From Candidatus Iainarchaeum andersonii SCGC AAA011-E11 (lineage in GTDB: Archaea > Iainarchaeota > Iainarchaeia > Iainarchaeales > Iainarchaeaceae), in the NCBI GenBank assembly GCA_000402355.1, contig AQRS01000042.1, positions 22,790 to 74,786 on the forward strand: a DNA stretch of 51,997 nucleotides, in the 5' to 3' direction. The notes under the pieces were generated by a model, which worked only from the letters and a program-made list of their open reading frames with translations, was not told the origin of the DNA and searched no databases. Each line of letters starts with the position of its first letter. Within the stretch, counting starts at the first letter, position 1. The translations under genes were made by a program, and so were the position numbers. Shown here piece after piece: positions 861 through 27,439 of the stretch.

Positions 861-3800
861 TCAGCGTATCTGCGTTGAGGCCGAACTTATGCACGCATTG
901 AGTGCCTGGTCTTCCTTGTTCTGTATTGTGGAGAAAATCTTTTTGGGGTTCCAGAAGAACTCCGCATTAATATTCGTTCCCGAAACGCACGCGTACTCGT
1001 CCTTCACCAAATCAAAGACGTCCTGCAGGCTGCCGATTTTGGATGTCACTCCATTGCCGTTCAAAGTAACCTTCGTGCCGGAAGTGGCCGCGCCGATGAG
1101 GGTTGCCTTGTCAGAGGCTCCGTCAGTCAGCTGCACGTAGCTGTTCGAGGCCTGCGGAGTATAGAAAACAGTTTCATAGAACACGCTGCCAAAGTCAATC
1201 ATCGGCGCGTTCCTCTCGCAGAACTCGAGCGCATACTTGCTCCTCTCGTTCGCGCCGACCAATGCGCATTGCGCGCTTATTCCGTGCGTGTCAGGAACGA
1301 ACTGCTGCTGCGCCATGACCGAGTCATCGAATCCGCGGCAACTAACCCCTATTCCGTTCCACAATGACATCGTGTTTCCGACATCCGTTGCATCCCCGTC
1401 AACGCCTACCTGGTAAATCGCGTACGCGTCTCCTTTTGATGCCTTGTCAATCTGGAGAATAACCGGAGTTGCGTTCGAAGGCTGGAACAAAAGCGAAGGA
1501 TTCTCGTTCGCGCGCGAAACCTTTGCAATCACTCCGCGGTTGTCGGCCTGCATGCTCCTGAAGTTGTCGCTGATTGAAACGCCAAGAGTGCCGTTCTGTA
1601 TCGGCGAGGAGCCCGCAATGTCAACCGTCCTCACAGGCGTCGCGGAATTGTCAATGATTACCGAGTCCCCGGCATAGTTCAGGCCGTATCCGGTTCTCCC
1701 GTTGTTCCCGAGCGGGCCGTCGAACGGCAAATAATAAAATGGGCTGTCGGGTTCCGCGCCGCGCAGCTTCTCGAGCCTCACGCTTATCTTTGCCTTCGGG
1801 TTTCCCTGCGCATCGAACAATTGCCAGGAATTGTCCGCATAATTAATGTCAATGACAACATTATAGGTTCCCGGCCCCTGGAGCGCATAATCAGGCTGGC
1901 TGTACGCATCGAAATTGAACAATTTGGTGTCCCTGAAATAAATTCCGAGCCCCGAATCCCTGTCCGTGTAGAAATCTGGCGCCCTGAAGAAAGTTTCGTT
2001 CTGCGCCACGTCAAAGTCGTGCTGGAAGTCAGAACTATAACCGTCAACCATTAGGGTTGCGTTGAACTTCGCCATCTTTACAATGGCGTCGTTCTTTATT
2101 CCGGATGCCTGCAGGAACTCATCCAGGCGCGAAGTGCTGTATGGAACGCACTCCTGCAATCCCGTTTCTCCGGCAAAGAAGTTTCTTGTAAGCGAGTTGC
2201 TTGCGGAAACGTCCTCGCAGTTCTCGCAGGAAATGCTCGGCGTTATTGAAACCTGTACAACATAGAAGCCCTCCGCAAGGCCGTTGAACTCGCACGAAAC
2301 ACTTTGCTTTCCGCCCGCGGCAACGCTGATGCTCTGGTTCCCCGAAGCGCAGTTTACCGTGCCGGCGTTGCCTGCCTTCACTGCCTTGATTGAAACCAAT
2401 GCGCTTATTATTCCCGGGTTCGTGTTTGTGATGTCCGCGGAAACACCAACTCTTGTCCCGTCTTTCGCAACCGAAACCTTTGAAACCCCTATGTCAAAGC
2501 TGCCGATTTCGCTTTCCGCGGGCTGGTCCTCCAAAGGCGAGGGGCACTTCAGGTTCGAGGCATTCTGCGCAACAAACCCGCTTACCGCGTTTATTTTTTT
2601 CATGAGCGCTATCGTGAACTGGGTTGCGTCGCAGTAAACCCCGTTCTCGTTATCCTCGTTGCACTGCTTTTCATCCACGCCGCTCCATGTCCAGTCGAAC
2701 TTGACTTTGGGCAGCGCGTCTTCTCCCGTTGACCCGATTTTTGTGCCGGCTTGGCAGTTCAATAATGAGGCGGGCTGAACGGTTTCAACCATCGGGGGAA
2801 CGCTGTTGAACTCCAAATTAAATCTTTGCTCGAGGCTCTGCCCACCCTTTTCCTCCAATGGAGTTTTTTCCTGGTTTACCGTGTCCTGCGTGAAGAACCC
2901 GAGGAACCCGCCTTCGGGATCCGTGAAATCCTCCTTTGTGTAGGTCTTGTCCGCGTATTCATGTCTCGTTCCCGAGACCTTGAGCTGCGAGTACTTCGGC
3001 TTTTCTTCTGTCGTTGTGAAGCCGCTGATGTTCGTGAATATCGTGCGCATGTTTTCAATGCCCTGTGAAATCAAATCCGCATTGTTCACGAGTGGCTGGG
3101 GCACGGTAGGGGCTGATTTCTTTCCGCCGAGGCCTTCAACCTCGACTCCAATGTCACTATCGGGTTGCTCGAGGCTTCCCGAGCCCTGCACGAGCGAGAT
3201 GCCCTTTATTTCCACATCCTTCTGCAGCGTAGTGAAGGTCGTTTCCGAGTCCTGGAAATAATAAGATGCAACGGTTCCCACTATACCATAGAACAGTCCG
3301 GACTGTACCGGATTATTTCCGAGAATTCCTTTCAGTAGCCCGAGGCCGCCTGAAGTAATCCCGCCAGCAAGGCCTCCTCCCAATGCGCTTCCGGCTCCGC
3401 CGCCGATTCCCTGAAGGAAGTTTTGTCCTGCAGGGGGCCGGCCGGCAATTGGCTGTGCCCGGGTTCCCGAAGACTGGTAAGGTGTTGTGGCTGTTGGGGT
3501 TGATAGCTGTCTCGGGTAGCTAGCGCCAGTTGAGGGCCCCGTGATTCCCGCGGCAAGGCCCTGCACCGGAGGCAGGACAACTTTGCCCGTAATCGCCGGA
3601 ACACTTGGCGCTTTAGATGCGGCATTAAGTTTGTTTAATTGCTCGGCATACGCTTTTGTCAATTGAGTAAGTTGCTGTTTTGCCGCTTGGAGCTGCTGTG
3701 CCAGTTGCTGGTTTTGTGCAGTCAGCGTTTGCTGCGTTTGTGCATCAGCAGTCTGCCTGTCTGCATCATTCCTGCTCATTTGTTCATCGAGATTCTTTAT

Positions 3801-6800: not shown

Positions 6801-8291
6801 TTCCTTGAATGCGAACGCATAATAGTTTCCGGAACTAACCCCGAAGAATTTCGCGACTCCATTGATGTCCGTGCTCCTCTGGTTATAGCCCGCCACAAAA
6901 TTTGTCGAGGCATTGTAAAGCGAAACAAACGCATTCCTTATGGGTTCGTTGTCCTGGTCAACAACCTTGACGACAAGGCTGCCGCAGGTTGTCGGCGTGC
7001 ACTTGTCCAGCTGCACAGTAATGAACGAATCGCTTATCGTGAGCCCGCTTACGGTTCCGAGCTGATAGGAATCCGCGTTCACGAACGCCTTGTACTCGGC
7101 AACGCGGCTGATGTTAAATGAAATCTCGCCGCCGTCATTCACCTTAAGCGTTGTGAGTTCCTCGCTGCTTGAGGAAAAAAGCAGTTTAACCGAAGCGCCC
7201 TTTACCCTCGCCTGGCTCTTCCTGTCAACCACGCGTATTTTTATCTGGCCCCTCACGTTCTCCCGGACAACCAGGTTGACGCTTTTTGTTTCGCCCGCGC
7301 CGAGGGAAATTCTCTGCGAAGCCGCCTCGCCGTAGCTTCCCGAAGCGTCATAGGTTTTCACCATGTAATCCCCGGGCGCCTTTGAGAATGATGCCTGCCC
7401 GCCTGAAGTGTAATCAACATCAATCGGCCCCACATTCGGGTTGGCGAGAATCTCCGAGTACCTGTAAAGTTCCGCACTGATTCCGTCTAAGCTTTTTCCT
7501 GTGCTATCCGCAACGTTCACGTTTATTGTTCCGCTTTGCGCCGCGATTCCGTCAAGGTAAATAATCTGGTCGCTGCCTGTAACCGCGAAACCGTAAACTT
7601 CCCGGAATGTTGCCGAATCCGACACGTCAACCGAGAGGCGCCCGCATGTATCCGGCACCATTACATTTGCAACCCCGTTGTCCGTGGGAGTCAAAGTAAT
7701 GTCCTGTATTGAGGGCGCGTAAGGGTCGGAGCAGCGGAATTTCAATGTGAAGTTTCCCGAAGCGTTTCCCCCCGCCCTGTCAAAGAGCCTGATTGTTTTT
7801 GCTGCAAAAGCATCGCTTTCCTTCTGGAGCTCGATGTCGAGTGCCTGCGGCAATTCCGCAATAATCGCGGTTTTCCTTGCGGAAAGGTAATCCTGTTTCT
7901 CGGCGCGCACCTCAATCTCATCATCCACCTTTACTCCCGTTTGCCTCGCGATTCCGGAAACGTCGGTGCCAATTCTTGAAAGCGGGGTTCCTCCCTTGAG
8001 GAAAGTCACGGTCGCGCCCTCGATTGCTTTTCCGCTCGGGTCCTTCACGGAAACCACGAGCGAATCATTTACTGAAGGAAACACAATCGATATTACTGTG
8101 CCTGCGAGCAGAAGGAGAATAACCAGGAATGCCGCGCCGAATATTATGAAGCTCGGGAAAACCTTGTCAATCGGGTCGACAATTTCATAAACCGGGATTT
8201 TGTCGTTGACCTTGTCAAGAAAATCATAGTATTTTTCCTCGAGGCTGTAATACCCCTGCTTAACGCTTTCCAAAAGGCCCAAGGAACTCAC
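861..8291 (-). CDS. Giant surface protein 1 (2476 aa): conserved N-terminal head + signal-anchor TM, carboxypeptidase-regulatory-like beta-sandwich repeats, internal TM/coiled-coil/Gly-rich module
   Basis: Uninterrupted 7.4-kb ORF with a GTG start at 8291 and no in-frame ATG nearby. Head is YYSLEEKYYDFLDKVNDKIPVYEIVDPIDKVFPSF, followed by TM FIIFGAAFLVILLLLAGTVISIVF. Repeats include VVSVKDPSGKAIEGATVTF, IKIRVVDRKSQARVKGASVKL, LVVKVVDQDNEPIRNAFVSLY and VRVKVKDSEGNQVSFPRIGIF. Colinear with the 2493- and 2844-aa ORFs (GAKYTAKFRLRIP..DEAGVHIRTG...FYRAWGESSG). Plus-strand ORFs inside it are short antisense shadows. Confidence 0.85.
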   Translation of the reverse strand: MSSLGLLESVKQGYYSLEEKYYDFLDKVNDKIPVYEIVDPIDKVFPSFIIFGAAFLVILLLLAGTVISIVFPSVNDSLVVSVKDPSGKAIEGATVTFLKGGTPLSRIGTDVSGIARQTGVKVDDEIEVRAEKQDYLSARKTAIIAELPQALDIELQKESDAFAAKTIRLFDRAGGNASGNFTLKFRCSDPYAPSIQDITLTPTDNGVANVMVPDTCGRLSVDVSDSATFREVYGFAVTGSDQIIYLDGIAAQSGTINVNVADSTGKSLDGISAELYRYSEILANPNVGPIDVDYTSGGQASFSKAPGDYMVKTYDASGSYGEAASQRISLGAGETKSVNLVVRENVRGQIKIRVVDRKSQARVKGASVKLLFSSSSEELTTLKVNDGGEISFNISRVAEYKAFVNADSYQLGTVSGLTISDSFITVQLDKCTPTTCGSLVVKVVDQDNEPIRNAFVSLYNASTNFVAGYNQRSTDINGVAKFFGVSSGNYYAFAFKEGFSGRSDAAYFSTAVSAGSGPNLTVTMEVGEGIVRVKVKDSEGNQVSFPRIGIFDARTNELIGSDFASADGNYEVNLKANRQVYVVVSKKDEQVYADYTTVKKPIIPEGVQEFNLKLEKPILKNNVELEFMGLYDAASRGVQNVKAGAKYTAKFRLRIPEEKDYDEAGVHIRTGMDVLMEKDKLEIKQVNAAKTSQVRATRFEGDGSNLNEGDYEITDGEAKWVNVRWRNPLAGVYEVEAEIQVKDSAALGENLFMFYRAWGESSGETDRFPEDDTVSEELYSNAKQEIFQVGIVTLCDESFCFKSTIADEENDFIDSVTDTYNARVFNPYKMQFVITNNSETRIHNSANLRIKNPDESIKFFDYTITDAQTRQAQGTVNGFEFPRLDVGNLLPKNSVMLEAEFTPQKAINGVVNIQLVSDQVIVFEKNLTVIVSSPKELEAEVEPQVYLSGIQNDVTVSVKDSASGLEIENAIVRLKDRAGNVLDYSTTAKDGTAVLTLPGQEPGEKLKIEIEKIDYNVKIIELNVTDRLLEITPAQVGVALNTKNKTQSSETISLRNVAPYDLYIKEIKLGGAFRNLLDTASIRNWLESSYKGMLIRAGEKRDIALKTSLSQDALALSDHTDLDGKLTIVAGNFGQEWAFNVPVKIAVGLGSEVDNPACLIITKSEWQTSTNGTPSKTEFQIQNNCTVGGKPIALQDLQAKVNWKTNQLGEYTLAFGDDQVILRGGYNRLLLGTMQKEQALTAILTFTPFGGVNGVAESDIVISAVNPLDGEDQVLENTMHTKITSINLKQCLQYDKESLDINQKESGIFTITATESCGEPVEFEIQSDLITDPAKQFTLQPGQSQKVQVFAADNYPGQYPVYVLPNFFSDKREQLAKNLKVRINAPGCWQLSKYEFDVYDSPRDEFDGFDVANLTNTCPQKPVGVKVNLKSWGDAAKNGLAYGLAAMALTWLGNYTDPNIENKFLGTAAQPGNGTQNLTQEQQLQNLNKQKADIETQIKNLDEQMSRNDADRQTADAQTQQTLTAQNQQLAQQLQAAKQQLTQLTKAYAEQLNKLNAASKAPSVPAITGKVVLPPVQGLAAGITGPSTGASYPRQLSTPTATTPYQSSGTRAQPIAGRPPAGQNFLQGIGGGAGSALGGGLAGGITSGGLGLLKGILGNNPVQSGLFYGIVGTVASYYFQDSETTFTTLQKDVEIKGISLVQGSGSLEQPDSDIGVEVEGLGGKKSAPTVPQPLVNNADLISQGIENMRTIFTNISGFTTTEEKPKYSQLKVSGTRHEYADKTYTKEDFTDPEGGFLGFFTQDTVNQEKTPLEEKGGQSLEQRFNLEFNSVPPMVETVQPASLLNCQAGTKIGSTGEDALPKVKFDWTWSGVDEKQCNEDNENGVYCDATQFTIALMKKINAVSGFVAQNASNLKCPSPLEDQPAESEIGSFDIGVSKVSVAKDGTRVGVSADITNTNPGIISALVSIKAVKAGNAGTVNCASGNQSISVAAGGKQSVSCEFNGLAEGFYVVQVSITPSISCENCEDVSASNSLTRNFFAGETGLQECVPYSTSRLDEFLQASGIKNDAIVKMAKFNATLMVDGYSSDFQHDFDVAQNETFFRAPDFYTDRDSGLGIYFRDTKLFNFDAYSQPDYALQGPGTYNVVIDINYADNSWQLFDAQGNPKAKISVRLEKLRGAEPDSPFYYLPFDGPLGNNGRTGYGLNYAGDSVIIDNSATPVRTVDIAGSSPIQNGTLGVSISDNFRSMQADNRGVIAKVSRANENPSLLFQPSNATPVILQIDKASKGDAYAIYQVGVDGDATDVGNTMSLWNGIGVSCRGFDDSVMAQQQFVPDTHGISAQCALVGANERSKYALEFCERNAPMIDFGSVFYETVFYTPQASNSYVQLTDGASDKATLIGAATSGTKVTLNGNGVTSKIGSLQDVFDLVKDEYACVSGTNINAEFFWNPKKIFSTIQNKEDQALNACISSASTQIR

Positions 8292-8373: not shown

Positions 8374-8835
8374 TCAAAACAGGCCCTGTATGCTTGCAAC
8401 GTCAAAAACAGGCAGGAACTCGTAGGCAAACCCTATTGCAACGCTGAGCAGTATTATGACTCCCGCGTAAGCGAGGTAAGCCTGCTTTTCCTCGAAAAAA
8501 TTCCTTTTCCCGTCAAGGTCGAGGAGCGCCATTTTTCCCATGTCCCTTCCGCCGAGCAATGCAACGAGCAGCGGCATCAATGAGGCGAAAACATAAATCG
8601 GGTTGTCAAAAATCCTTCCGCCGAGAATCATTCCCGCGAAAAAAAGCAGGAAAAAACCCGCCCTTCCGAAGAATGCCGCGCCCAAAAAGAACACCGCGAG
8701 GCTCAAGGTCAGGAGTTCGAGAATCGGGCTTATTGCGCCGGGCTGGAGCGGCTCGATAAAAACATTCACGAGTATCACTCCAAGGATAAAGAAAACCATT
8801 CCGAGGAAAACCGTGACAATGTTGCCGAAACCCAT
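8374..8835 (-). CDS. Small polytopic membrane protein (about 153 aa, 4-5 TM), unknown function, wedged between two giant genes
   Basis: The ORF is 8374..8904. I prefer the internal ATG at 8835 (MGFGNIVTVFLGMVFFILGVILVNVF...) because the longer form overlaps the end of the 2493-aa gene by 41 nt. The sequence is hydrophobic throughout (LELLTLSLAVFFLGAAFFGRAGFFLLFFAGMILGG, YAGVIILLSVAIGFAY). Confidence 0.55.
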   Translation of the reverse strand: MGFGNIVTVFLGMVFFILGVILVNVFIEPLQPGAISPILELLTLSLAVFFLGAAFFGRAGFFLLFFAGMILGGRIFDNPIYVFASLMPLLVALLGGRDMGKMALLDLDGKRNFFEEKQAYLAYAGVIILLSVAIGFAYEFLPVFDVASIQGLF

Positions 8836-8863
8836 GCGTTCACTTTCCGAATCCCAAAGTTTC

Positions 8864-11800
8864 TCACGGCGCTTCGAATGCCTTTGCATTCCAGAACAAA
8901 TCAACCTTTCCGCCTTCGGCCTCGAAGCAAACCTTTGCCTCGGAATCGCTGTTGCCCTTGACGAGGCTCAAAAGGTTCTGGAGATTGTATGTGGTCTGGT
9001 ATCTGCCCGAAAGGTTGCTGTTCAAAGCCAATTTTCCCTGCGGCAAATCCTGTGTCCGCACCGAGTTCGGCGGCACGAGGTCGTATGTTTCCGTGAGCGA
9101 ACCGCGGTCCTTGGGCTGGCACGGCAGGTTGATGTAGGTGGTGTTGCCGCTGTAGAGTGCTGGCACGAAAACCAGTGCCGAGTACGTCGCGCTCTCGCCA
9201 TTCTTGGGTTCGTTGATTATGAATCCCGGGTACATTGTGCTCAGGTTCCTGCACAGGTCTCCTCCGTTGAACTCCTGCGCATACACTTTTTCGCTGCTGT
9301 TGCCGACCGCATCGTTCGCATTCCACGGAATGCTGCTGAGCTCGTTTATCCTGCCGTTGTTCGAGGAAACGAACTCATACAGGAAGCCCGCGGCCTCATC
9401 GGCTTTTGAATTCTTCGAGAACTTCACTTCAAGCTTTATGGGGTCCGAAGGCAAGTACTCGAATGCGGTCCTGCTGATTGAAGCTATCTTTCCGCCGAGC
9501 ACGTCGCTCTGCTTCCTCTTCACGCTGAACAAAACGCTTCCGCTTGAATTTCCTTTCGTCTTTGCGACTGGCAAAGCAGAAACGTCGCTGAGTTCCTGAT
9601 TTCCGTAATTGTTGAACACCAGTTCTTTTCCGTTTGCATTGGTGAAGCTCGTTCCGGAATCAACAGTGCCGTCAATGGGCAGTGAGAAGAGCGCGTTGTC
9701 CGCGTAATCCGAGTCGAATTTTTCCGCGCCATTCTTGTTGTCGGAATCAATCTGCTTCAAATCCCTGTTCTTCAGGAAAGATATTGCCGCCTTGTCGTCG
9801 CTCCACGTGTAGCTTATCGTTACATTGTAATCGCCTGCCTCTACGCTTCCCTCGGTGAATGAAAGCGTTGAAGGCATCATGGAGCCATAATCCGAAGAGC
9901 CCTTCATTGCGGTTGCGAACGAGTCATTGTAATTATCCTTCATGAGGAACACCGAGGGCTTTATGTTCTGCCTGTAGAACTGCAGGAAATTAGTGCTGCC
10001 GCTTCCTCCTTTATATCCGCTATTCCACGAGCCGCTCTCCATAACCAATTCCTTTACCGAGTCGCTCATTGCGGTGTTCTTTGCCGTAATCTTCCAGGTC
10101 CCCGCCGCGATTTTTTTGAGCAAATCCGTTGTAACTGTTTTTCCGTCTATGGTGCAGGTTGTGACTTTATTCCGGCAATTCGGATTCGAAAAAACTTTCG
10201 AGTTGAATTCCCTGTAAGCACTAAGCTGGACTGCATAAAGATTGTCTGAAATCTTTTCTGCGGGCAATACTGCGCTGTCGGCGTCGCTCCATGAATTGAG
10301 TTCAAGCACATAAGTCAGTCCCTTCAATTCAGGATTCTCGAGTGCGAATGCAATCTTGCCAATCAGGTTTTCAGTATTATTGACGATTGCCGTGTTCTGC
10401 TGCAAATCGGTGCTGCTTGCATTCATCTGGCTTATCGAGTCCGCGAGAATCTTAGAATCATTCAAAGGTGCCATTGCAATCGCCTTCAAAGTGAGGTAGA
10501 GCAAGTGAGCCTTGTCCGAAGCGCTCGTGAAGTAACCTTTGTTCTGGTCAAGCACAAACCTGAACAATTCAAGCGAATTCCTGTTTGCAGGTTCTGCACA
10601 ATTGAATTCGTTCGCAGTTGTAACACAGAGGCCATTTCCGCTATTTGCGCCTTTCACGATTGTTGTGATTGCCTCTACCCTGTCAATCTTCCTCGAGAAT
10701 TCAACCGTCGCCTGAACCGCGTCACAGAACAATGGTGCTGTATCCAAATTCAGTTTTCTCTGCGCTGTCGTATTCGTTGCTTCGTAAACATTGCATGCAT
10801 TCTCCGGAATCTTTTTGTCTTGATCTCCGGAAACGCGCCACTCGTAGCTGATGTGCTGCAAACCATATTTCCTGTAAACATCAGTTCCCGAATTTCCATT
10901 CTCGCACTCGAACGAAGATGTTTCCCCATCCTGCCCGGGTCCCGTGCCAGGTCCTGTTCCTGCGCCTTGCCTTCCCGCAACGCTAATCTGTATGTTGAAG
11001 CCGACAAGCTGCTTTCCTGGTGGCGAAATCCTGTTCACGTTGCCTATCATTTTCACGTTGAAGCTGGTTTTTTGACCGTTCCACGGTCCCGAGGTTTCAT
11101 CAAATCCGATGGACATTTCATGGCCGCCGTTATCGAGCTGCACATTCATTACCAACCCGGTTTTCGGATCCTTGAACGAGGTAGGCTCCAAATCAGAAAT
11201 GAAGTCAACTGTTCCGCATCCTCCGCTCTCATTGTTAGTTGTCGGGTTCTTGGTTGCGTACCTGAACAATCCACCGTTCTCGAGAGTGGAGTAAATCCTT
11301 CCAACGGGCAGTTCTCCGCCGGTTATTTTGGTGAAATTCAAGGATTCTTTCTTCAGGCACTGCTCCGGCGTGAATTTGGGGTCGCCGTATGTAGTGAACT
11401 GCTCCGAAATCCTTGCCCCTGCCTCGAGCAACGGCCACAAATCCTGCAGCACGAGCCTGAAGCTTGTGGTCTTCTGGCCGCCGTAAGGCGTCGTGAACCT
11501 GACGACAAGGTTGGTGCGCGACATGACCGAGTAATATGTCGTGGACAGGAAATACCTCAAATTTCCGATGTCCGCATACTTGTTTGCCTCGAAGAACTGC
11601 GCGGGCGGTGCCTTGTTCCTGTAAGTGCTCAGCGCCTTTGCGACCTCGAAAGTCAAAACCTGCTTTACCTTTCCGTTCGGCTGTGTCTCGAATTTCTCGT
11701 CAATGAGCCCCCAGCTTTCAATAAGTTCCTTCACTCCCGCTGATTCATCCGTGGGCGTGTTGATGCCGAGGCCGGCAAACGAAACCGCGTTGGTGCTCGA

Positions 11801-16411: not shown

Positions 16412-16527
16412 AAACACCTTTTTTCTTTCTTTGTCAAGAAAGAAAAAAGCTGTGCCAAAAAAGAAAGAAAACTAACTGCTGTGCCAAAAAGAAAGGTGTA
16501 AAGGAAAATCTTGCCAAAAGAAAGAGC
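16412..16527 (-). promoter_or_regulatory. Conserved upstream module of giant gene 2: imperfect ~13-bp hairpin/palindrome (16418-16449) plus three copies of a GCYKTRCCAAAAAGAAAG box
   Basis: Plus strand reads CACCTTTTTTCTTTCTTTGTCAAGAAAGAAAAAAGCTGTGCCAAAAAAGAAAGAAAACTAACTGCTGTGCCAAAAAGAAAGGTGTAAAGG...CTTGCCAAAAGAAAGAGC. A near-identical module occurs at 27513-27572, at the same distance from the ATG of giant 3 (73 vs 78 nt). Confidence 0.45.
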
Positions 16528-16615
16528 GCCCTTACAAGTGTATGGCAAAAAAACAAATGCCGGGTTTTTTATTTTCGTGGGGGGGGTTTCCGCAGGCCTA
16601 ACATTAAAGGTTGTA

Positions 16616-16708
16616 ATATCAAAAGACATTAATTCAGCAACTTTTATTAGTGTCTTTTGATAGCTATCAAAGGACATTATTTGTTTCATTATTTATGCCC
16701 TTTGATAT
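16616..16708 (+). promoter_or_regulatory. Operator-like array: 4 half-sites TGTCYTTTGATA, including the perfect 16-bp palindrome TTTGATAGCTATCAAA (16656-16671), upstream of or overlapping the start of the GGDEF-family gene
   Basis: Half-sites are ATATCAAAAGACA (16616-16628), TGTCTTTTGATA|GC|TATCAAAGGACA (16651-16676) and GCCCTTTGATAT (16697-16708). The 60-nt unit 16616-16676 recurs twice, in the same orientation relative to the downstream gene, at 46755-46813 and 46847-46906. Confidence 0.5.
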
Positions 16709-17760: not shown

Positions 17761-17768
17761 TTTTTTTT
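17761..17768 (+). terminator. T8 tract between convergent genes; candidate archaeal oligo-T terminator for the GGDEF-family gene
   Basis: TGA at 17751-17753 is followed by CCCTAAC TTTTTTTT. Position 17768 is also the first base of the TCA that encodes the stop of the convergent minus-strand gene. Confidence 0.3.
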
Positions 17769-18868: not shown

Positions 18869-18904
18869 GAGCACTAATTAGCAATTAAGGAATATAATAA
18901 GGTT

Positions 18905-21900
18905 TCAGGATGCCTTCCACGCGTACGAATTCCATGCGCTGTAAATCTGCTCGAACTGGGTTCCCGTAACATTAATTGCGTTGGCTTCCTGGTTGTCCTT
19001 GTCCGCATTGTACTCGGCGAGGTAGCACGGCACATCGCCATTGCATTCTCCCGCATAGGAGTAAAGCTTATCCGAAGCGCACAAAGCGTTCGGGTAAACG
19101 TCTCCCGCTGTCTTGTCGCTGTGCAGGCTGCATCCGAACATGAATATTGCGGAGCCCTTAGCGTCCGGAGCGGTTGCCGTGCCTGTGTAGGTTCCAAGTT
19201 CGCTCTTCACAATGCCGATGCTGACTGTAAGCGCCTCGAGATTGAGGTTGTTCGTGAGTGCCGCGAACCTGGTTTTCTTGTTTGAGGAAGAATCAAGGGA
19301 TGCAGGTTGGCCTTTCTGGTCCTTCACTGCCTGCGCAATGATGGCTCCGTACCTTTCGCCATTTGATTGTTCCGCCAAATAATTCTTCGCGATTTTCACG
19401 TGCTGTGTCTGCAGTTCTTTTGATGCCTTGAACGGCTCGGGGAATTTCTGCGAGTCCTCAACTTCAGGAATCAGGCCGGGCAAAACCTCGCCAAGCTCCT
19501 TGTCTATTCCGGAATTCTTGCAGTCGTTCAATACTGTGTCGGGCTTTGTTCCCTGCGGAATGCCGTTGGCCGCCTGCGAGAACATGAGAGACTGCACGCC
19601 GTCCGCCCTGGTTTTCAGCGAAACCAAATAGGTGTTGTACCTCACTATTTCCTTTGCCGCATTTCCCGTTGTTTCGATTTCCTGCCCGAACAAGCCCACC
19701 TGCGCTTTTTTGAGTTCATCTTCCCTCGAAATCGTTTTCACCGCATTTATTCCGGTGCTGTCCTCCTTGTTGAACACCGAATTGTAGGCTATGAGGCCGA
19801 TGCTGTTTGCAACCGCGCCTAAGGCGCCTTCCTTCAAAGCATTTTTCGCGAACGCCAGGCCTCCCTTCCAGCTCCAGAATTTCGGGCGCGCATCCTCAAC
19901 GGCCTGTGCAGCGTTCACTGTCAGGCTCTTCACGCCGGTTGAAGCGAACTTATTCTGCAGTGCCGTGTCATAGGTAGTTGCTAAGGGGCTCCTGATTCTT
20001 TCTAGGACATCTTCCTTGAATATGCTCTCCGCCTGCTGCACCATTTCCTTGACCTGGTCATTCCCTATTTTGATTTTTGTTTCAAGCGGAGCCTTGACCT
20101 GGACAGCCTGTCTCGCTCCCGGAGGAGCCGCAACATCTTCGAAGTATTCGGCAGTCGTGCCTGATCTCCAGTCGAGCTTGAGACCGTCTATTTTGGCTTC
20201 GAGGTTGGGCGGAAGTGCAGCAACGCCGAGCTCATTCTTTATCCTTGTCTTTATGCTGTTCTTCAAGTTGTTTTCCAGGCCGAGTACATTTGTGTTGAAT
20301 TGCGGATATGTTGCAGGGTTCCTGGCCACATCATCTAGGTCTACAAAGGTTCCAGCTCGAGTTGTCGGCAGTATGACTGTCGTGGAGCCCGTCACTCTGG
20401 TTTGCAGCTTCATGTCCTCCACGATTTTCTCCGCTGTCGCTTCGCTGAGCTTGGCTGTCTTGAGGCTGTCAACCGAAACCCCGTTCCTCACGTTATAGAA
20501 TTGCCTCCAGACCGTTTCATCCTTGTCCACGCGGAGCTTCGCGGCCTCGACAGCCTTCGTGATGTCATCAGTCGTTATGTTCGTGGTCCGTCCGGCGCCT
20601 TTGATGCTTATTGTAGTTTTTGATTTTGCCGCCGATTGCAGTTCCGCCCGGACTTCCTTGTACATTGCGTCATCATAAACTCCCTGGAATGCCTTGATGT
20701 TGTCGAGCATTTTCTTGTCAGTAACTCCTGCGAACGCGTTTTTCGTAATATCCTCCGCAATCGTGTCCGCAATGTTCTTTGAAACAATGTCAATCTGCCC
20801 TATCCATGGTATGTCCGGCCCGCCGATTGCGGTGCTGGAGAAAGTCCTCGATGCTCCGAGTATTACCGCCTTGAGCCTTATCGGGTCGGCGAATGCCGCG
20901 CTGATGCTCTGTACGGCGTCGGTTTTCGGGTCAAAGCCTTTCAGCTGCTCCGCGATGCTTTTCTCGTTCCCGATGCCCATCAGCCTCAAAGGGTACGAAA
21001 TTATTCTCCCTGCAAATGTGCTGTCGAGGAACTCGTTCACCTTCTTGAATATTCCGTCAGCGAAATTGAATATGTCCTTCATGAACGGGACAGTTTCCCC
21101 CATGAGAGCCGTGAAAGGAATTCCGCAATCGAATAGCACATTCAGCAGTGCCCCCGCCGGGCCTATTGTGGGCCGCAGCAAAGAAGTGCCAATGCTCGCT
21201 ACGCCGCATGCCCCGAGATAAGCGTATGACGCCTTTCTCTTTTTTTGCACCAGTTCAGGCGGGTCGCCCTGCGTCACGTTCTGCTTTCCATCGATGATGC
21301 TGTCGCTGGTTTTTGCGACCTCTTCGGCCCTCGCGAGTTTAGGAAGGTCACTCAAAAGTATTTTGTCGGGGTTCCCTTTCCACACAACCGTTGCATAATA
21401 CTCGCCGTTCGGCTTGCCCTTGATTTTCTCGAGCAGGTCCAAAGGATGAACGCCGCACACATTAAGTTCCACCTCGGTTTCAATCGGCTTCTTGCCTTCT
21501 CCTGCAGTCCTTTGCGCGGTAACAACAATCTTTTTGCCCTGTGCCTGCTGAAGCTGCTCATTTCCCGTGACGCAAACCATGGCCCCTCCAGTGTACGAAT
21601 TCGTTTTCTTGTCTTGCTTGTCAATCTGCAGCTGCGTAATCTTCGCGCCCGGATTGGGTGCCGCGCCCAGCACGGGAGCCGCGGCAAAGTACGGGCTGTC
21701 AGCGCTGATTCCGTCGAACTGCGAGAACTTGCGCGCGGAAAGCGAAACGCCGTCAGTGAACTTGCTCGTCACGTTCACGTCGACGCACTGGGGCACATTG
21801 AAAAGCACGTTCAGCGGTCCAGTCACTTTTAAGACAGGCAATTCAAAGCTGCTCGTGCTCTTCAAAAGCAGGTAGCTTTCGTCCTGGCTTATGCAGCCTT

Positions 21901-24900
21901 CAACCACGTTATCGCGCAAATCCTTGATTGCCTGGCCGGCCTCTTTCGCAATGTCCTTCTGCAGCTGGTCGTCGCTTCCAATGCTTTCCTTGATGTAAGC
22001 GTTTATTGTAACTGGGTTCTCGGAAATAACCTTGTCCATTTCAACGCGGACAATATAGCCCTCTTCGTTCCCGAAATCAAGCTTCAAGGTGTTCGAGCCC
22101 GAAACGTTCTGCGTCGCCCTTTGGTCCGAACCGAACAATGTTTTTGCAACGTCCTTTGCGAGGCCGTCAAGCTTTTCATCGCGCGCCTGCACGACCCCGA
22201 GCCACGAGTTATATTTCTCCGATGTCGTGAGGCCCTCATCCCGCGGCAGGAAATTTGAGATGTTCTGTATGCGCGCGAGGCACTGCTCCGTTTCCTCGCG
22301 AACGCTTCCCCCGTCGCTTGAATCAGGCGTAATGTCAACGACCATGTTCATGAGCTCTGGCACGAGCCTCGCGCCCTGCACCGCAACAGAGCCATTGAGC
22401 GTTATCGTATATCTTCCGCATCCCCTGAAGTTGCTGTTCAGGAAAACCTGCCTGCTGTAGCCCCCGAGGTACTCGCCACCCGTGTCCCCGCTGATGAAAT
22501 CAGCCCTGAAGTCCCTGATTACGCCGGTTTTCTTGTCAATGGCTTTCTGCAAAAGCGCCGTGCTTAAATTGTCCTGGCCCATGTAAACGGAGAAAGTTTC
22601 CTTCCTCACGCCGAGGCCGTCGAAAGAGCAGTAGCCGCGCGCGAGCTCCTGCTGCGAACAATACGCATTCTGGATTTCGGAACTCTTGCTCTGAATCTGC
22701 TTCTGCGCGTCGGTAATTTTTGAATCAATCCTGTCCACCAAATAAGCCGCGAGTTGCTGCGCGTCGCAGTAACTCGAGTCGCAGAGCGGCGAGTTTCCTG
22801 CCGCGATTATCGGGAACCTGACATCCATTGTTCCGCCTCCACACACATTCAATGTGACGCGCTCCGTTGCCGCGGTCCCTTCCTTGACATATTTTCCGAG
22901 CTTCACATCCACAATGATTGGAGTGGATTCTATTGCGGTTCCGCTGTTCGGCAAAAACGCCTTTATGTAAACAGGGACAGCCGGCCCCTGGAAATCCTCC
23001 TTCTTCTCAAGTATGAGTTCGGCCTTTGCTTCCGCGCCCGGCGCAATTATCATGTCCGCGGGGCTTATCGAGAGCCTGTTGTTTCCCAATGGCGCCTGCG
23101 AGATTTCACGTACCCTTACAGGCTCCGCGCAGGTGTTGCGCAGGCTTATGCTTTGCGAGATCGCGCCTTCATCGCTCTTCGTGCTGATGTAACTCACGTT
23201 TCCCGGGACCGCGATGAGGCAGCCCTCCGCGGAAATGTGCGAAGTCACAATGATTGGCCCGAAGTTGAATGTCGTGCCATTGATTACTCCCGTAACGTCA
23301 AGCTCCTTCGTGTCCACAAGAGTGGTCTTCTCGTTGCGCAGGGCCTGTGCAATAATTGTTTTTGGCGGGAGAATCGCCTGCCCTTTTTTCAGGAACTGTA
23401 TCGCGAACGGCGGGTCAATCCTTATGTCCACGTTTCCGCGGGAGGTCGCGCTCGAAACCTTTATGTCGACATTTTCTATGTCCGCTTCCCCGACGTTCCT
23501 TATGAAGAGGGGCACCTGCGCCGCGTATTGCCCGCGGTCGTTCGGGCCCAAAAACAATTCGATATTGTTTGTCATCTGGAGCGCGTAGCGCGGGTTCCAG
23601 ATGTAAACATCCAAAGAAACGGTCTTTTCGAAATCGCTTCCCTTGTAAACGAGGTCAAAGCTGAACTTCTGCTTTCCGGGATAGTTCCTGAGGAGCTTGT
23701 TCGTAATGCTTATTGTAACCTCGTCGGTGTCGGTCCGGTTTCCCTGTGTTTCCGAGAGCTGCGGCGAGACCTTTATCTGCTCGGGGTCAACCTCAATGCC
23801 GTCGGTTTTCTGGCCGCGAGGAACAACCTGCGCCGTCAGCTCCAGATCAAGCTGGCACTCCGCCCTGTTCGCGAGCTTTGCAGTGAAAGTTTCTGTCGTT
23901 GATGCCGAGAAATTGTTGTACTTGTAGTAACTCGTCGGTTCGGTCGAATTAAGGGTTCCATACCTGTTGTCATAGTAGGGGCGGTCCTCGAAACCCGAGG
24001 CAACATAAACCGCGAGCTTGTCCTTGCTGAACTCAAGGCAGTCAGAACTTATCTTCGGGTTGTAATCAATTACCGCACGCGTTTCCGCGACAACACTGAA
24101 GCCGCTCTCTGTTTTTGCGCGCGCAATAATCCTTGCGGCTCCATGCGCGCTGTCATTTTCGCCCGTGTATTTTGCGCTTACCGAAATCCTCTGCGTCTGG
24201 CCCGCCTGCAAACCCGAAAGGGGCGAAATTTCAATTGCCAGTCCGTCAGGCAATGCGCCTATGGGTTCGGCCGTAAAAGTGATGCTGTTCAGGTTCTGCT
24301 TGGAGTTGTTCACGAGGTCAATGAACTTGTCAACATTCTTCTCGCCCTTCCTTATGATTAGGGACACCTGCGCATCCGCAAAGGAGAGCATTCCTGTTTT
24401 GGTTATGCTTATGGTTCCGTCGAGCGCCCTGAATTCCGGCGCGGTGATTTCGTATCTTATTGTGCCGGAACCGAATGTGTTCTTGATTGCGTACATTCCG
24501 TTCGCGCCTTTTCCGACGGCTCCGTTGCCGCCGATTGTTTCAAGGTCATCGCCCGCCTCGTTCTGAATCCTTATCTGCGCATTTTCCACGGGCAGTGAAT
24601 CATCGCCAGTGAGGCCTATTGAAAAGTCCTCGCCGAAAACAACGTTTTCAGGGGTTGTGCGGAGCACCATTGTGCGCTCCCTGAAAATCTCGAAGTAGAA
24701 CTGCTCGTTGATTATGGTTTCGCCTGAAATGAGCTGCAGGGTTATTCCGGAGTTCTCCTTTTCCTTGGTCTTGAAGTAGAGCCTCACGGATGTGGATTCT
24801 TTCGGCAAAACGGAAACGTGGTCAACCTGAATCGAGGTGTCGGAGCTGTTCGTGTCCGGGAAATCGGAGAAATTCTCTATGCCATAGCCCTGGAACGCGA

Positions 24901-27439
24901 TTTTCGGCTTTGTCTTCGAGGTGGATGCCTTCACCGTAATGTCGCGCGCGTCCGCCGGGCTCAAATTTATTTCGAGAGCGTAAATCTCGTTCAATGCCGC
25001 CTTGAAATTATCCGGCCTGAATTCCGAGCCGCCGCTCCTTATGAATTTGTAGCTCGCGCACAATTCGTTCGCGCATGAGGCGCTTGATTCAAGTATCCTG
25101 ATTTTCCCGGCGCTGGTTTGCGCGTACAGCGATGTCCTGTTCTGCGAGTAAACGCTTTTTCCGAGTTCAGAGTCCTCCGGGTTTCTGTAAACAGTGCTGC
25201 CTATTGCGCTCCACGCGCGGTAATGAACCTCGGTTTCAGAACTCGAGGAAGTTTCCTTTGCCTTCACGCGAACCTTGATTATTTTTTCTCCGCCGCTCTT
25301 GAAGTAAAGCTCGAGCCACTTGTTGTACGCGCCTTCGGAGCCCGAATTCGAGTAATCAAGGGCTTCAAATCCAGGGGATGGCTGCGGCGAGTAACTTCTC
25401 GCGTAAAAGCTGCTTGCTCCTGACGCCGAAAAACCGGTTATGCCCGCGTCCTGCGAGTCCGCGAAATTAACGCTGTCCTCGCCCATGCGGACATGGAAGC
25501 CGTTGTCCGTTGTCCCTTCCGCGAACACCGCCTTGAACTTCAGGAAATAATCAACGCCCTTGGAAATTCCCTGGGCCTGCGAACCATCAATGTTGAACAC
25601 GCCCTGGAACTCTACATCAGGGGCAGTAGTTTCGCCTGTTTTTCCGGCAGGAGAAACGCTGACCTCATCCTTGCCCTCGACATAAACTTCCTCGTCAAAA
25701 GTTTTTCCCTCAGCATCTTCATAAGTGACCGTGACATACTTGTTCTCCTTTGGGTTGAACACAATGCCGCCTGTAGTGTAACTGTCCTCGAAGAGCAGGT
25801 CCTTTCCGGCAACAACCGTCACTTTACCGCCGCTCACCTCTTTTCCCGCGGCATCAAGCACCTTGAGGTCGACCTGCGAGAAAGGCTTCCTCATTGTAAT
25901 GAATGCCTCGTTGTTGAACGTGTCCTGCACATTCACTGTTGCTTCGCCCTCCAGGCCGCTTTTCGTTGCCGTGACAAGAATGCTCTTGTTCAATGGAACT
26001 AGTATTGAAAGCTTCCCTGTCGCATCGCTTTTTTGCGTCGGGATTCCAAGCGGAATGACTCCGTTCTTGTCTGTCTGTTCCGAAAAGTTAATGGCAACGC
26101 CGTTCATTGCATTGTTCTTTTCATCAACAGTGTAAACCGTGAGCGAACCGGAGTTCTGCGCAGTCGCCCTTTCAAGCACGAGGTTGGTTCGGTTCTTCGC
26201 ATTCAGGTTGATTGTTTCAATTGCGGGAATGAACTTGTCCTGCCATGCGGTTGCATAATAAATGGTTTCCGTCGAGAGGCTCTCGAAAACGGCTTCGCCC
26301 GCGAGCCCGGTGTCCTGCGTTCCAATGAGTTCGCCGAGGCTGTTGTAGAGGTTCACGCTGATTGATGGCAGCGGCCTTCCCGTAACATCAATGACGCCGA
26401 CAGTAAGCGCGTTCTTGCCGGGCTTGAGGTAATAATCCTTTATGGTTTCGACATCCCTGAGGGTAATGTTTTCCTCAACCAACCCCGAATCGTAAGTCAG
26501 GTAATCGCTTCTCTGCACCACAATCCGCACAATGGCGCCCTTGGAAATTTTTTCCGCCTGCTCGCCGTCATTGTCGGTTTCGGTCGTTTCGGTTATGAGC
26601 TCGTTGTCCTTGGCATCGTAAACCTTGAGGGTGAAGTTCCCGAGGCGCTGCCTCGAATCAAAATCATAAACCCTGACAATGAGGTTCGATTTTCCCGAGG
26701 ATGCGCTTGCCTTCGCAACAAGCTCGACTTCATCCGGGGAATCACTGTGCATTGTTGTCGTGAAATTTTTCTGCTCAAAGTTCGCCTGTGTAATCTGCAG
26801 CGTTGTCTGGTCGCCCTCAATTACGCCCGGGCAGGTATAAAACCCGTTCTCGGTCGCGCTTTCAAAGCACTGTATGCTTCCTCCTGAAAAGCTTGCGACA
26901 ATTTTTGCGTCCGAAACAGGTGTTCCTGTAGCGGAATCCGCGAGGCGCAGCGAGCCCTCGATTATTTTCACCTGCTTCTTGAGTTCGAGCTCAACGGCCT
27001 GCTCCGCGCCGCTGAAATAAACTTCGCGCGTGAAAGAATCGTAGCCGTCCTTTGATGCCTGCACAGTGATTCTCGAGCCTACTCCGAGCTTCAAAGGAAT
27101 GCGCTGCCCATCGCGGAAAGTGGTTGAACCCAATTCAATAGCCTTGCCCTGGGAATCGATCGCGCTGAGCGAAACGCCCGTTAGGGTAGCGCCCCTGTCA
27201 TCCGTGATTGACAGCACAATCGTGGCCTGTTGCGAGGGCAGGAAGAAAAAGCCGTACAAAAGGAATGCGACTATTAGAAAGCCGGCTATTGCAAGCGGAA
27301 AAGTGGGAATCCCGCGGTTCTCCAAAGGATCAATGACGGCATAAACAGGCACTCCCTTGTCGCTCAGAAAATCCATTGCGGCGTAAAACTTCCCCTCAAT
27401 GCCCGCGTAAATGCCGCCAATAAACTCGGAAATCCCCAT
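18905..27439 (-). CDS. Giant surface protein 3 (2844 aa): paralog of giants 1 and 2 with the same head + TM + beta-sandwich repeats and a divergent long C-terminal half
   Basis: Uninterrupted 8.5-kb ORF with an ATG at 27439. Head is IYAGIEGKFYAAMDFLSDKGVPVYAVIDPLENRGIPTFP, followed by TM LAIAGFLIVAFLLYGFFF. Repeats include IVLSITDDRGATLTGVSLSAI, LIVRVYDFDSRQRLGNFTLKVY and LTVGVIDVTGRPLPSISVNLY. The core is colinear with giants 1 and 2 (GVDYFLKFKAVF..DNGFHVRMG...HYRAWSAIGS; SASCANELC). Confidence 0.85.
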   Translation of the reverse strand: MGISEFIGGIYAGIEGKFYAAMDFLSDKGVPVYAVIDPLENRGIPTFPLAIAGFLIVAFLLYGFFFLPSQQATIVLSITDDRGATLTGVSLSAIDSQGKAIELGSTTFRDGQRIPLKLGVGSRITVQASKDGYDSFTREVYFSGAEQAVELELKKQVKIIEGSLRLADSATGTPVSDAKIVASFSGGSIQCFESATENGFYTCPGVIEGDQTTLQITQANFEQKNFTTTMHSDSPDEVELVAKASASSGKSNLIVRVYDFDSRQRLGNFTLKVYDAKDNELITETTETDNDGEQAEKISKGAIVRIVVQRSDYLTYDSGLVEENITLRDVETIKDYYLKPGKNALTVGVIDVTGRPLPSISVNLYNSLGELIGTQDTGLAGEAVFESLSTETIYYATAWQDKFIPAIETINLNAKNRTNLVLERATAQNSGSLTVYTVDEKNNAMNGVAINFSEQTDKNGVIPLGIPTQKSDATGKLSILVPLNKSILVTATKSGLEGEATVNVQDTFNNEAFITMRKPFSQVDLKVLDAAGKEVSGGKVTVVAGKDLLFEDSYTTGGIVFNPKENKYVTVTYEDAEGKTFDEEVYVEGKDEVSVSPAGKTGETTAPDVEFQGVFNIDGSQAQGISKGVDYFLKFKAVFAEGTTDNGFHVRMGEDSVNFADSQDAGITGFSASGASSFYARSYSPQPSPGFEALDYSNSGSEGAYNKWLELYFKSGGEKIIKVRVKAKETSSSSETEVHYRAWSAIGSTVYRNPEDSELGKSVYSQNRTSLYAQTSAGKIRILESSASCANELCASYKFIRSGGSEFRPDNFKAALNEIYALEINLSPADARDITVKASTSKTKPKIAFQGYGIENFSDFPDTNSSDTSIQVDHVSVLPKESTSVRLYFKTKEKENSGITLQLISGETIINEQFYFEIFRERTMVLRTTPENVVFGEDFSIGLTGDDSLPVENAQIRIQNEAGDDLETIGGNGAVGKGANGMYAIKNTFGSGTIRYEITAPEFRALDGTISITKTGMLSFADAQVSLIIRKGEKNVDKFIDLVNNSKQNLNSITFTAEPIGALPDGLAIEISPLSGLQAGQTQRISVSAKYTGENDSAHGAARIIARAKTESGFSVVAETRAVIDYNPKISSDCLEFSKDKLAVYVASGFEDRPYYDNRYGTLNSTEPTSYYKYNNFSASTTETFTAKLANRAECQLDLELTAQVVPRGQKTDGIEVDPEQIKVSPQLSETQGNRTDTDEVTISITNKLLRNYPGKQKFSFDLVYKGSDFEKTVSLDVYIWNPRYALQMTNNIELFLGPNDRGQYAAQVPLFIRNVGEADIENVDIKVSSATSRGNVDIRIDPPFAIQFLKKGQAILPPKTIIAQALRNEKTTLVDTKELDVTGVINGTTFNFGPIIVTSHISAEGCLIAVPGNVSYISTKSDEGAISQSISLRNTCAEPVRVREISQAPLGNNRLSISPADMIIAPGAEAKAELILEKKEDFQGPAVPVYIKAFLPNSGTAIESTPIIVDVKLGKYVKEGTAATERVTLNVCGGGTMDVRFPIIAAGNSPLCDSSYCDAQQLAAYLVDRIDSKITDAQKQIQSKSSEIQNAYCSQQELARGYCSFDGLGVRKETFSVYMGQDNLSTALLQKAIDKKTGVIRDFRADFISGDTGGEYLGGYSRQVFLNSNFRGCGRYTITLNGSVAVQGARLVPELMNMVVDITPDSSDGGSVREETEQCLARIQNISNFLPRDEGLTTSEKYNSWLGVVQARDEKLDGLAKDVAKTLFGSDQRATQNVSGSNTLKLDFGNEEGYIVRVEMDKVISENPVTINAYIKESIGSDDQLQKDIAKEAGQAIKDLRDNVVEGCISQDESYLLLKSTSSFELPVLKVTGPLNVLFNVPQCVDVNVTSKFTDGVSLSARKFSQFDGISADSPYFAAAPVLGAAPNPGAKITQLQIDKQDKKTNSYTGGAMVCVTGNEQLQQAQGKKIVVTAQRTAGEGKKPIETEVELNVCGVHPLDLLEKIKGKPNGEYYATVVWKGNPDKILLSDLPKLARAEEVAKTSDSIIDGKQNVTQGDPPELVQKKRKASYAYLGACGVASIGTSLLRPTIGPAGALLNVLFDCGIPFTALMGETVPFMKDIFNFADGIFKKVNEFLDSTFAGRIISYPLRLMGIGNEKSIAEQLKGFDPKTDAVQSISAAFADPIRLKAVILGASRTFSSTAIGGPDIPWIGQIDIVSKNIADTIAEDITKNAFAGVTDKKMLDNIKAFQGVYDDAMYKEVRAELQSAAKSKTTISIKGAGRTTNITTDDITKAVEAAKLRVDKDETVWRQFYNVRNGVSVDSLKTAKLSEATAEKIVEDMKLQTRVTGSTTVILPTTRAGTFVDLDDVARNPATYPQFNTNVLGLENNLKNSIKTRIKNELGVAALPPNLEAKIDGLKLDWRSGTTAEYFEDVAAPPGARQAVQVKAPLETKIKIGNDQVKEMVQQAESIFKEDVLERIRSPLATTYDTALQNKFASTGVKSLTVNAAQAVEDARPKFWSWKGGLAFAKNALKEGALGAVANSIGLIAYNSVFNKEDSTGINAVKTISREDELKKAQVGLFGQEIETTGNAAKEIVRYNTYLVSLKTRADGVQSLMFSQAANGIPQGTKPDTVLNDCKNSGIDKELGEVLPGLIPEVEDSQKFPEPFKASKELQTQHVKIAKNYLAEQSNGERYGAIIAQAVKDQKGQPASLDSSSNKKTRFAALTNNLNLEALTVSIGIVKSELGTYTGTATAPDAKGSAIFMFGCSLHSDKTAGDVYPNALCASDKLYSYAGECNGDVPCYLAEYNADKDNQEANAINVTGTQFEQIYSAWNSYAWKAS

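Follow-up and report, generated by a model that had tools for sequence, protein, structure and literature searches.

The window analysed here is a stretch of 51,997 nucleotides (nt) from contig AQRS01000042.1 of Candidatus Iainarchaeum andersonii SCGC AAA011-E11 (positions 22,790 to 74,786; G+C content ~51%), a member of the Iainarchaeota, or Diapherotrites, a phylum of DPANN archaea of which, to our knowledge, no member has been cultivated. DPANN archaea have tiny genomes, and this one spends ~23 kb of the window on three giant surface proteins, besides a fourth that runs past the edge of the window. The three complete ones are encoded in tandem on the minus strand and were delimited from their open reading frames (ORFs) and from Pfam matches to beta-sandwich domains: G1 (861..8291; 2,473-2,476 amino acids, aa), G2 (8864..16345; 2,493 aa), and G3 (18905..27439; 2,844 aa). 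Two starts are available to G1, and the TTG at 8282, from which M-G-L-L-E-S-V-K fits the family consensus MG[IL]x[ED]x[LI]K, is likelier than the GTG at 8291. All three giants share one architecture: an N-terminal head of ~45 aa, a single long hydrophobic helix, and ~2,400 aa of beta-sandwich domains. The head, which is the subject of this work, is an undescribed, family-defining N-terminal domain under strong selection at the level of the protein sequence. An earlier sequence-only reading of the window had already pointed out three minus-strand giants sharing such a head, and the ORF coordinates and peptides it quoted are exact.

Judged by their alignments, G1, G2, and G3 are paralogues. BLASTP aligns G1 with G2 over 1,324 aa (28% identity, E=1e-108) and G2 with G3 over 899 aa (23% identity, E=2e-25), and it matches G1 to G3 across the head and first domain (E=1e-13) and over a middle stretch of 584 aa (21% identity). 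The ectodomains had been described as colinear, which holds for the N-terminal ~1,300 aa (G1/G2) or ~900 aa (G3) and fails for the C-terminal halves, which are not detectably similar. Repeated PF13620 (CarboxypepD_reg) domains, matched at 70 bits in G1, 109 in G2, and 38 in G3, together with Big_1, SdrD_B, bMG3, and SpaA matches, identify the giants as multi-domain surface proteins of the CarboxypepD_reg/Ig-like kind. The first ectodomain is modelled by AlphaFold2 as a transthyretin-like beta-sandwich, a fold that Foldseek confirmed, with teneurin among the matches. Further on lies a family-specific region of tandem beta-sandwiches (13631..14590, minus strand, aa 586-905 of G2; equivalents at 5580-6494 in G1 and 24743-25666 in G3), modelled at a predicted local distance difference test (pLDDT) score of 91, for which Foldseek returned integrin alpha legs, Gram-positive pilins, and MSCRAMM adhesins at low TM-scores that indicate likeness at the level of the fold only. 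The ectodomain motifs quoted in the sequence-only reading are real: GVH(I/V)RTG, YRAW, and LCxxxFC fall on the invariant columns H69, R71, G73, R159, C205, and C210 of an alignment of 33 middle regions. This region was found in 130 of the 159 long family members. The remaining ~29 lack it and yet keep the head and the CarboxypepD_reg repeats, which means that the head outlasts recognisable similarity of the ectodomain. Inside G1, Gly/Ala-rich, weakly hydrophobic segments flank a Q-rich coiled coil (window ~3190-3970, aa ~1440-1700), and similar segments occur in G3 at aa ~2070-2110 and ~2470-2500.

The head of G1 (MGLLESVKQGYYSLEEKYYDFLDKVNDKIPVYEIVDPIDKVFPSF; 45 aa, 8148..8282 on the minus strand, like all parts of the giants) was delimited from alignments and from a hidden Markov model (HMM) of the head, which it matches at 71 bits; those of G2 (16202..16345) and G3 (27296..27439) count 48 aa each and score 89 and 91 bits. 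The hydrophobic helix follows at once, at 8079..8147 in G1 (IIFGAAFLVILLLLAGTVISIVF; Kyte-Doolittle 19-residue mean 2.89, the sole such segment of the protein), at 16136..16201 in G2 (residues 49-70), and at 27239..27295 in G3 (LAIAGFLIVAFLLYGFFFL), as placed by hydrophobicity in all three. The wider regions proposed earlier for the heads (8082-8291, 16150-16345, and 27250-27439) took in most of the membrane helix as well. Across the family, the consensus is MG[IL]x[ED]x[LI]Kx[FI]-Y-[YF]x[LI]-E-D-K-[YWF]-Y-x[FL]-L-D-x[LI][DN]xK(G)I-P-V-Y-K[VI][IV]-D-P-I-[ED](x)[KR]x[IV]-P-S-F-(P), in a long variant (the G2 and G3 types) and a short one (the G1 type). Several residues are near-invariant (in G2 numbering, Y11 at 97%, E15 at 98%, D23 at 99%, P31 at 94%, Y33 at 98%, D37 at 94%, and P45 at 99%), and the helix is joined through an invariant proline in the junction (K/R)x(I/V)-P-S-F-(P), where P reaches 99%, S 75%, and F 89%.

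Between the paralogues the head is 42-52% identical over 33 ungapped positions, against 21-28% overall. The same contrast extends to 195 non-identical members, a set mostly recovered via the head itself: mean pairwise identity is 0.39-0.49 in the head and 0.17-0.23 in the following 400 aa, i.e., conservation is roughly twofold higher in the head than in the ectodomain. Orthologues that were recovered with ectodomain searches alone all carry the head. Its sequence matches no described family: at E≤10 the three head-plus-helix peptides gave no Pfam family (one chance match, E=0.18) and the heads no NCBIfam match, and a sequence search of the PDB gave just a chance match to a haemagglutinin (E=0.46).

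How widespread the head is was assessed by an exhaustive profile search, in which seven head-plus-anchor sequences were run against 1.84 billion representative proteins, and by a genome scan with the back-translated head in one genome per GTDB species, with confirmation by tblastn. The profile matched 1,007 protein clusters at E≤1e-3, and 458 at E≤1e-10, always within the first ~120 residues among the best 150 of the 1,007 matches. The scan yielded 118 confirmed copies in 78 loci, nearly all in metagenome-assembled genomes (MAGs) of Iainarchaeum/Diapherotrites, a few in genomes labelled Micrarchaeota, and one in a Chloroflexi bin that may reflect a binning error. Within the window and the loci fetched from other genomes, the head HMM was searched over 11,894 six-frame ORFs and matched N-termini of giants only, including exactly three ORFs of the window; the local search of the fetched loci recovered 111 N-terminal heads. 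The 74 complete head ORFs have a median length of 2,238 aa, and 70 reach at least 1,000 aa. Three of the shorter ones (in loci L014, L033, and L064) are each directly followed by a giant-like ORF and look like split giants, and the fourth (L040, 61 aa) is remnant-like. The head had been called private to the three paralogues, which these numbers overturn: it is the signature of a phylum-wide family. Its earlier description as a specific conserved module rather than a generic signal sequence agrees both with its excess of conservation over the ectodomain and with its occurrence far outside the three paralogues, and the suspected tie to very large archaeal surface proteins was borne out by the lengths of the complete head ORFs. 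The head was seen on no unrelated protein among the inspected members, and nothing indicates that it spreads as a module by itself. In the sources, its carriers are called 'carboxypeptidase regulatory-like domain-containing', 'collagen binding domain-containing', or 'hypothetical', and the head now provides a short, near-invariant, and searchable signature for the family hidden under such labels.

Close relatives of G1-G3 are encoded in MAGs of Candidatus Diapherotrites and Iainarchaeum, with a further copy on another contig of a close relative (L012). G2 is 54-55% identical to its orthologues P0001 and P0002, and G3 is 57-59% identical to P0003-P0005. In the head and helix, G2 shares 48-53% identity with its own orthologues and 33-34% with G1 and G3, and of the head residues that are identical between two paralogues, 6/17, 10/14, and 9/17 in the three comparisons are encoded differently. 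Heads thus group by orthologue and not by genome, which, together with the differing codons, argues that the paralogy is ancient and is not due to gene conversion or recent duplication. In at least 24 loci, two to three head giants are arrayed in tandem and in one orientation, and, as in the window, the long-head gene comes before the short-head one. From these comparisons, the similarity of the heads is ancient and maintained at the protein level, and the head signature marks the tandem paralogues as ancient and maintained as well.

The AlphaFold2 model of the G2 N-terminus, built on a 46-row alignment, has a mean pLDDT of 93.7 and exceeds 90 across head and anchor. It places a helix at residues 7-27, a turn, a helix at 32-40, the IPSFP junction, a continuous 24-residue helix at 46-69, and then the transthyretin-like beta-sandwich, so that the head is predicted to be a two-helix unit continuous with the anchor helix and packed beside its start. 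A Foldseek search with the head, anchor, and first domain was dominated by the transthyretin-like domain and uninformative on the head. G1, G2, and G3 each have one strongly hydrophobic segment (Kyte-Doolittle 19-residue mean >1.6), directly after the head, as in type II signal-anchor proteins with a single N-terminal transmembrane (TM) helix; the hydrophobic stretch has a median of 26 residues across the family. None of the 73 complete members ends in a C-terminal TM helix. The number of ectodomain cysteines is even in 60 of these 73, with 26 in each of G1, G2, and G3, and lysine plus arginine (K+R) are weakly biased to the N-side of the helix (1.52 before, 0.95 after). From the single hydrophobic segment, the missing C-terminal TM helix, the even cysteine counts, the weak K+R bias, and the adhesin-type folds of the ectodomain, we infer that the helix is an uncleaved type II signal-anchor, which would leave the head in the cytoplasm and the bulk of the protein outside. 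In some relatives of the G1 type, an additional hydrophobic segment is present near aa 1,500 (in several it is strongly hydrophobic and lies near aa 1,470-1,600), so that some members may cross or insert into the membrane a second time.

The array has conserved surroundings. On the same strand as G3 and 142 nt upstream of it, an exosortase/archaeosortase-family membrane protein, here called ArtX, is encoded at 27582..28094 (minus strand). It matches TIGR04178 at 39.6 bits (cut-off 23), and its C80, R122, and H142 are invariant in three orthologues. The named subfamilies (ArtA-F, XrtG/H/M/P/X, and others) all stay far below their cut-offs, the best being XrtG with 29 bits against 103. Each of the six genome and metagenome contigs that reach far enough, namely the window, L080, L081, L082, L085, and L088, encodes ArtX or an orthologue no more than ~2 kb upstream of a G3-type giant, with one intervening gene in each of L081 and L088; on L087, a short contig, the archaeosortase-family gene is followed first by the gene for a different secreted protein. 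The sequence-only reading had overlooked ArtX. At 28142-29008, the window encodes a membrane protein of 288 aa. Divergent from the giants is a type IV pilus-like locus (29201..38863, plus strand), recognised from Pfam matches and N-termini, with a T2SSE ATPase, a FlaJ/T2SSF-like platform, and six pilin-like ORFs. A locus of this type also stands, again divergently, beside the G3 orthologues in L080, L082, and L088. The pairing of the giants with both an archaeosortase-family gene of no named subfamily and a pilus-type locus is conserved, which suggests a module devoted to surface assembly.

Other genes are interspersed with the giants. A small polytopic membrane protein, as read from its sequence, is encoded between G2 and G1 (8374..8838, minus strand); it matches no Pfam or NCBIfam family and has homologues in 8-12 related loci. 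Between G3 and G2 lies a gene for a pilin-like protein of ~366-368 aa (17768 to 18868 or 18874, minus strand) with a class III-type N-terminus, MEKG/FTLFTALVAF (the slash marks the presumed processing site), and a weak ComGF N-terminal match, which is syntenic in L001 and present in 6-7 loci. A GGDEF-like ORF (16650-17753, plus strand; PF00990, 36.5 bits) lies on the opposite strand between G2 and the pilin-like gene; its absence from the syntenic L001 makes it a probable lineage-specific insertion rather than a component of the system. Among the neighbours that the sequence-only reading had named as partners of the head, the GGDEF-like gene thus drops out, and the ATPase and pilin locus, syntenic in relatives, stays in. 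A search for the window's neighbours in 79 genome loci found the pilin-like ORF and the small membrane protein only; the absence of the ATPase and the archaeosortase from these loci is uninformative, because their flanks are mostly filled by giants. Single-linkage clustering of neighbours also produced one cluster spanning 46 loci, which was discarded as a mixture of giant fragments and other secreted proteins. The array extends further than the sequence-only reading had it: the fourth giant, G0, is a tandem paralogue cut by the window edge (1..792, minus strand) with a TM helix and the same first ectodomain as G1-G3. Its head is reduced (GIADKLRAALDSLQEKIPVPLP) to one helix and KIPVPLP, a type also found in L002, L003, and L006.

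The explanation that we favour is that the head giants are an undescribed family restricted to one archaeal phylum, the Iainarchaeota, and that the head is the cytoplasmic juxtamembrane domain of an uncleaved signal-anchor, serving biogenesis or docking; taken as one joint claim, we give it a probability of about 0.5. An uncleaved type II signal-anchor would keep the head in the cytoplasm and the ~2,400-aa adhesin-like part outside. Being small and presumably fast-folding, the head could fix the N-in orientation during co-translational insertion, a role proposed because the head is net acidic and the positive-inside bias of the anchor is weak. It would also present a common acidic and aromatic juxtamembrane surface (Y11, E15, D23, Y33, and D37) on every paralogue, to which a shared partner in the membrane or cytoplasm might bind during the biogenesis or joint assembly of the giants. 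Candidate partners from the conserved operon and its neighbourhood would be the archaeosortase-family protein, the small membrane proteins, and the platform or ATPase of the pilus-type locus. In this way, the head points to a conserved cytoplasmic or membrane interaction. Several observations weigh against this explanation. G0 does without the second head helix, which means that not all members need the complete head. With a net negative charge of the head (mean -2.5) and a weak positive-inside bias, it is chiefly the character of the ectodomain that speaks for the orientation. In 98 of 194 members, a small-x-small motif occurs no more than 12 residues past the helix, which makes cleavage by signal peptidase possible. 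The contrast in conservation between head and ectodomain is inflated, because the sequences compared were found through the head. And the candidate partners are proposed from gene neighbourhood.

These points bear on several other readings. The likeness of the heads could be a functionless by-product of recent duplication or gene conversion, or of a nucleotide constraint at the 5' ends of the genes, as might be suggested by the tandem arrangement and by the 71% nucleotide identity of G1 and G2 over 45 nt of the head. We give this almost no credence: gene conversion and nucleotide-level constraint are ruled out by the grouping of heads by orthologue rather than by genome, by the different codons used for identical residues, and by a motif kept across hundreds of diverged clusters, 1,007 in all. 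It is also very improbable that the topology is reversed, with the head translocated and the bulk of the protein in the cytoplasm. Such an N-out orientation would suit a short, acidic head and a flank past the helix that lacks strong positive charge, but it would put ~2,400 aa of transthyretin-like, Ig-like, and adhesin-type beta-sandwiches inside the cell, and it sits badly with the even cysteine counts and with K+R being commoner before the helix than after it. That head and helix form a cleavable Sec signal peptide of unusual length, extended at its N-terminus by a conserved stretch, the giants being released or kept at the surface through other contacts, is possible, if rather unlikely. 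The head would then be a functional analogue of ESPR, the precedent for conserved signal-peptide extensions on very large secreted proteins (PMC2805444, PMC8151025). Besides this helix, the giants lack a membrane anchor, and small residues do follow the helix (SSA/S in G2, QQA/T in G3, and PS motifs in the G1 types, besides the small-x-small motif already counted). Hydrophobic stretches of ~24-26 residues, the length found here in the family median and in the AlphaFold2 helix, are however characteristic of uncleaved anchors, and the h-region of a cleavable signal is usually shorter. Moreover, the column frequencies of the family contain no conserved cleavage motif, and a near-invariant domain of ~45 aa that is modelled at pLDDT >90 would be costly as a discarded leader.

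Two further readings concern the function of the head. One, which we hold unlikely, and which partly overlaps the favoured explanation, is that the head mediates assembly of the paralogues, so that G0-G3 would form a hetero-oligomeric stalk or complex in which the cytoplasmic heads and anchor helices pack together. The recurrence of co-oriented arrays with a conserved order of types, to which the window adds a fourth member with a reduced head, would fit such a complex, as would the fact that good conservation between paralogues is confined to head and helix; many loci, however, have a single head giant within 20 kb, and no coiled-coil or oligomerisation signature was found. The other is that the head, PSF junction, and helix are the recognition signal of the co-operonic archaeosortase-family enzyme, perhaps together with the adjacent pilus-type platform, in an inverted, N-terminal counterpart of the C-terminal PGF and PEP signals. 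An enzyme gene with an intact Cys/Arg/His triad, assignable to no named subfamily, precedes the G3-type giants in all six sufficiently long contigs, the giants have no classical C-terminal signal, and a P-[SG]-F motif directly beside a TM helix is reminiscent of PGF-CTERM. Against this, the known motif lies outside the cell, before a C-terminal helix with a basic tail inside (PMC6098224), whereas the PSF of the giants would be on the cytoplasmic side, and no conserved motif occurs at the outer end of their helix. The enzyme gene was not found in the 79 short-head-centred loci, most of which do not reach the start of the array, and in L087 it precedes a different secreted protein. The window also holds a conventional candidate substrate: a secreted protein of 1,529 aa (41356-45945, plus strand) that matches no Pfam or NCBIfam family and ends in PSLPEDK, a TM helix, and QRRKK. 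No other protein of the window has a classical tripartite C-terminus of the sorting type. We therefore regard an N-terminal archaeosortase signal as quite improbable; if it were real, this would be the first sortase-type sorting or processing system whose signal is N-terminal, and it would be reserved for the giant surface proteins of DPANN archaea.

The favoured explanation of a cytoplasmic juxtamembrane domain can be set beside known systems that combine large surface proteins with conserved N-terminal extensions. ESPR, the extended signal peptide region (PF13018), precedes the hydrophobic core of the export signal in two groups of proteins of diderm bacteria, the autotransporters and the two-partner-secretion proteins, and a tuning role in membrane targeting and translocation has been proposed for it (PMC2805444, PMC8151025). 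The head, too, is a conserved, family-specific N-terminal extension before a hydrophobic core on very large surface proteins. It differs in lacking a Pfam match to the ESPR profile (E≤10) and in its make-up: ESPR has ~25 aa, is basic and aromatic, and belongs to a cleaved signal peptide, whereas the head has ~45 aa, is acidic and aromatic, comprises two predicted helices, precedes an anchor-like helix of 24-26 residues, and is archaeal and not tied to a beta-barrel translocator. YSIRK/GS and KxYKxGKxW are conserved motifs in the N-region of the signal peptides of large Gram-positive adhesins and direct the secretion site or route. The heads have no PF04650 or TIGR03715 match (Pfam and NCBIfam, E≤10), and these motifs, unlike the head, are short, are not folded as a domain, and sit in signal peptides that are cleaved. 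By analogy, the head would work like export-signal extensions of the ESPR or YSIRK type without being a member of those families. If it is their archaeal counterpart, the export of giant proteins would have been solved convergently.

Archaeal class III signal peptides, i.e., those of type IV pilin-like proteins, have before processing the same order of cytoplasmic leader, hydrophobic helix, and extracellular domain as the giants, which also have a pilus-like locus and a pilin-like gene as conserved neighbours. The pilin-like ORFs of the window differ, however, in their short leaders ending in (K/R)G before the helix (KG/Q or RG/Q), whereas the 45-aa leader of the giants ends in (K/R)x(I/V)PSF(P), without Gly or Ala at position -1; a class III signal for the giants was rejected on account of this PSF junction without [KR][GA]. 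The known signals of archaeosortases and exosortases are C-terminal tripartite structures (PMC6098224). The giants resemble substrates of the PGF-CTERM/PEP-CTERM kind in adjoining an archaeosortase-family gene and in having a short proline motif that abuts a TM helix, and differ in that motif and helix are N-terminal and in the opposite orientation. A C-terminal sorting signal on the giants is ruled out by the lack of a C-terminal TM helix in all 73 complete members. Teneurins and other giant type II adhesion proteins of eukaryotes likewise begin with an intracellular domain, cross the membrane with a single TM helix, and continue as a huge beta-rich ectodomain that includes a transthyretin-like/CarboxypepD_reg domain. 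Their intracellular domain counts several hundred residues and is unrelated to the head, and the likeness is architectural only. A last comparison is with Giant1-5 of Apilactobacillus kunkeei, proteins of thousands of residues encoded by consecutive genes of a ~1.5-Mb genome, diverged internally and conserved in their terminal regions (PMC12863079). Here, too, the giants of a small genome are in tandem, have diverged internally, and keep a conserved terminal region, but Giant1-5 are bacterial, unrelated in sequence, have ordinary Sec signal peptides, and carry their conserved region (DUF5776) at the C-terminus. Giant surface proteins of this kind are the obvious candidates for cell-cell contact.

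A few observations concern other parts of these loci. In other lineages of Iainarchaeota, secreted proteins of ~830-1,110 aa with an N-terminal HCW motif are encoded ~1.5-2 kb downstream of head giants that are shorter (1.6-1.8 thousand aa) and lack the middle domain, a second conserved neighbourhood seen in L025, L029, L035, L043, L056, L061, L071, and L075. Near its far end, the window encodes a second set of type IV pilus/archaellum-like components, a T2SSE ATPase and two T2SSF-like ORFs (48715-51855, minus strand). A 37-nt element lies ~100-150 nt upstream of the start codons of G2 and G3 (16465-16501 and 27535-27571, 81% identical) and may be a shared promoter or regulatory site. A second repeated element with a palindrome (TGTCCTTTGATAGCTATCAAAGGACA) occurs at 16614-16713, at the start of the GGDEF-like ORF, and at 46728-46907, where two tandem copies lie between ORFs 45974-46723 and 46936-47871; it looks like an operator.

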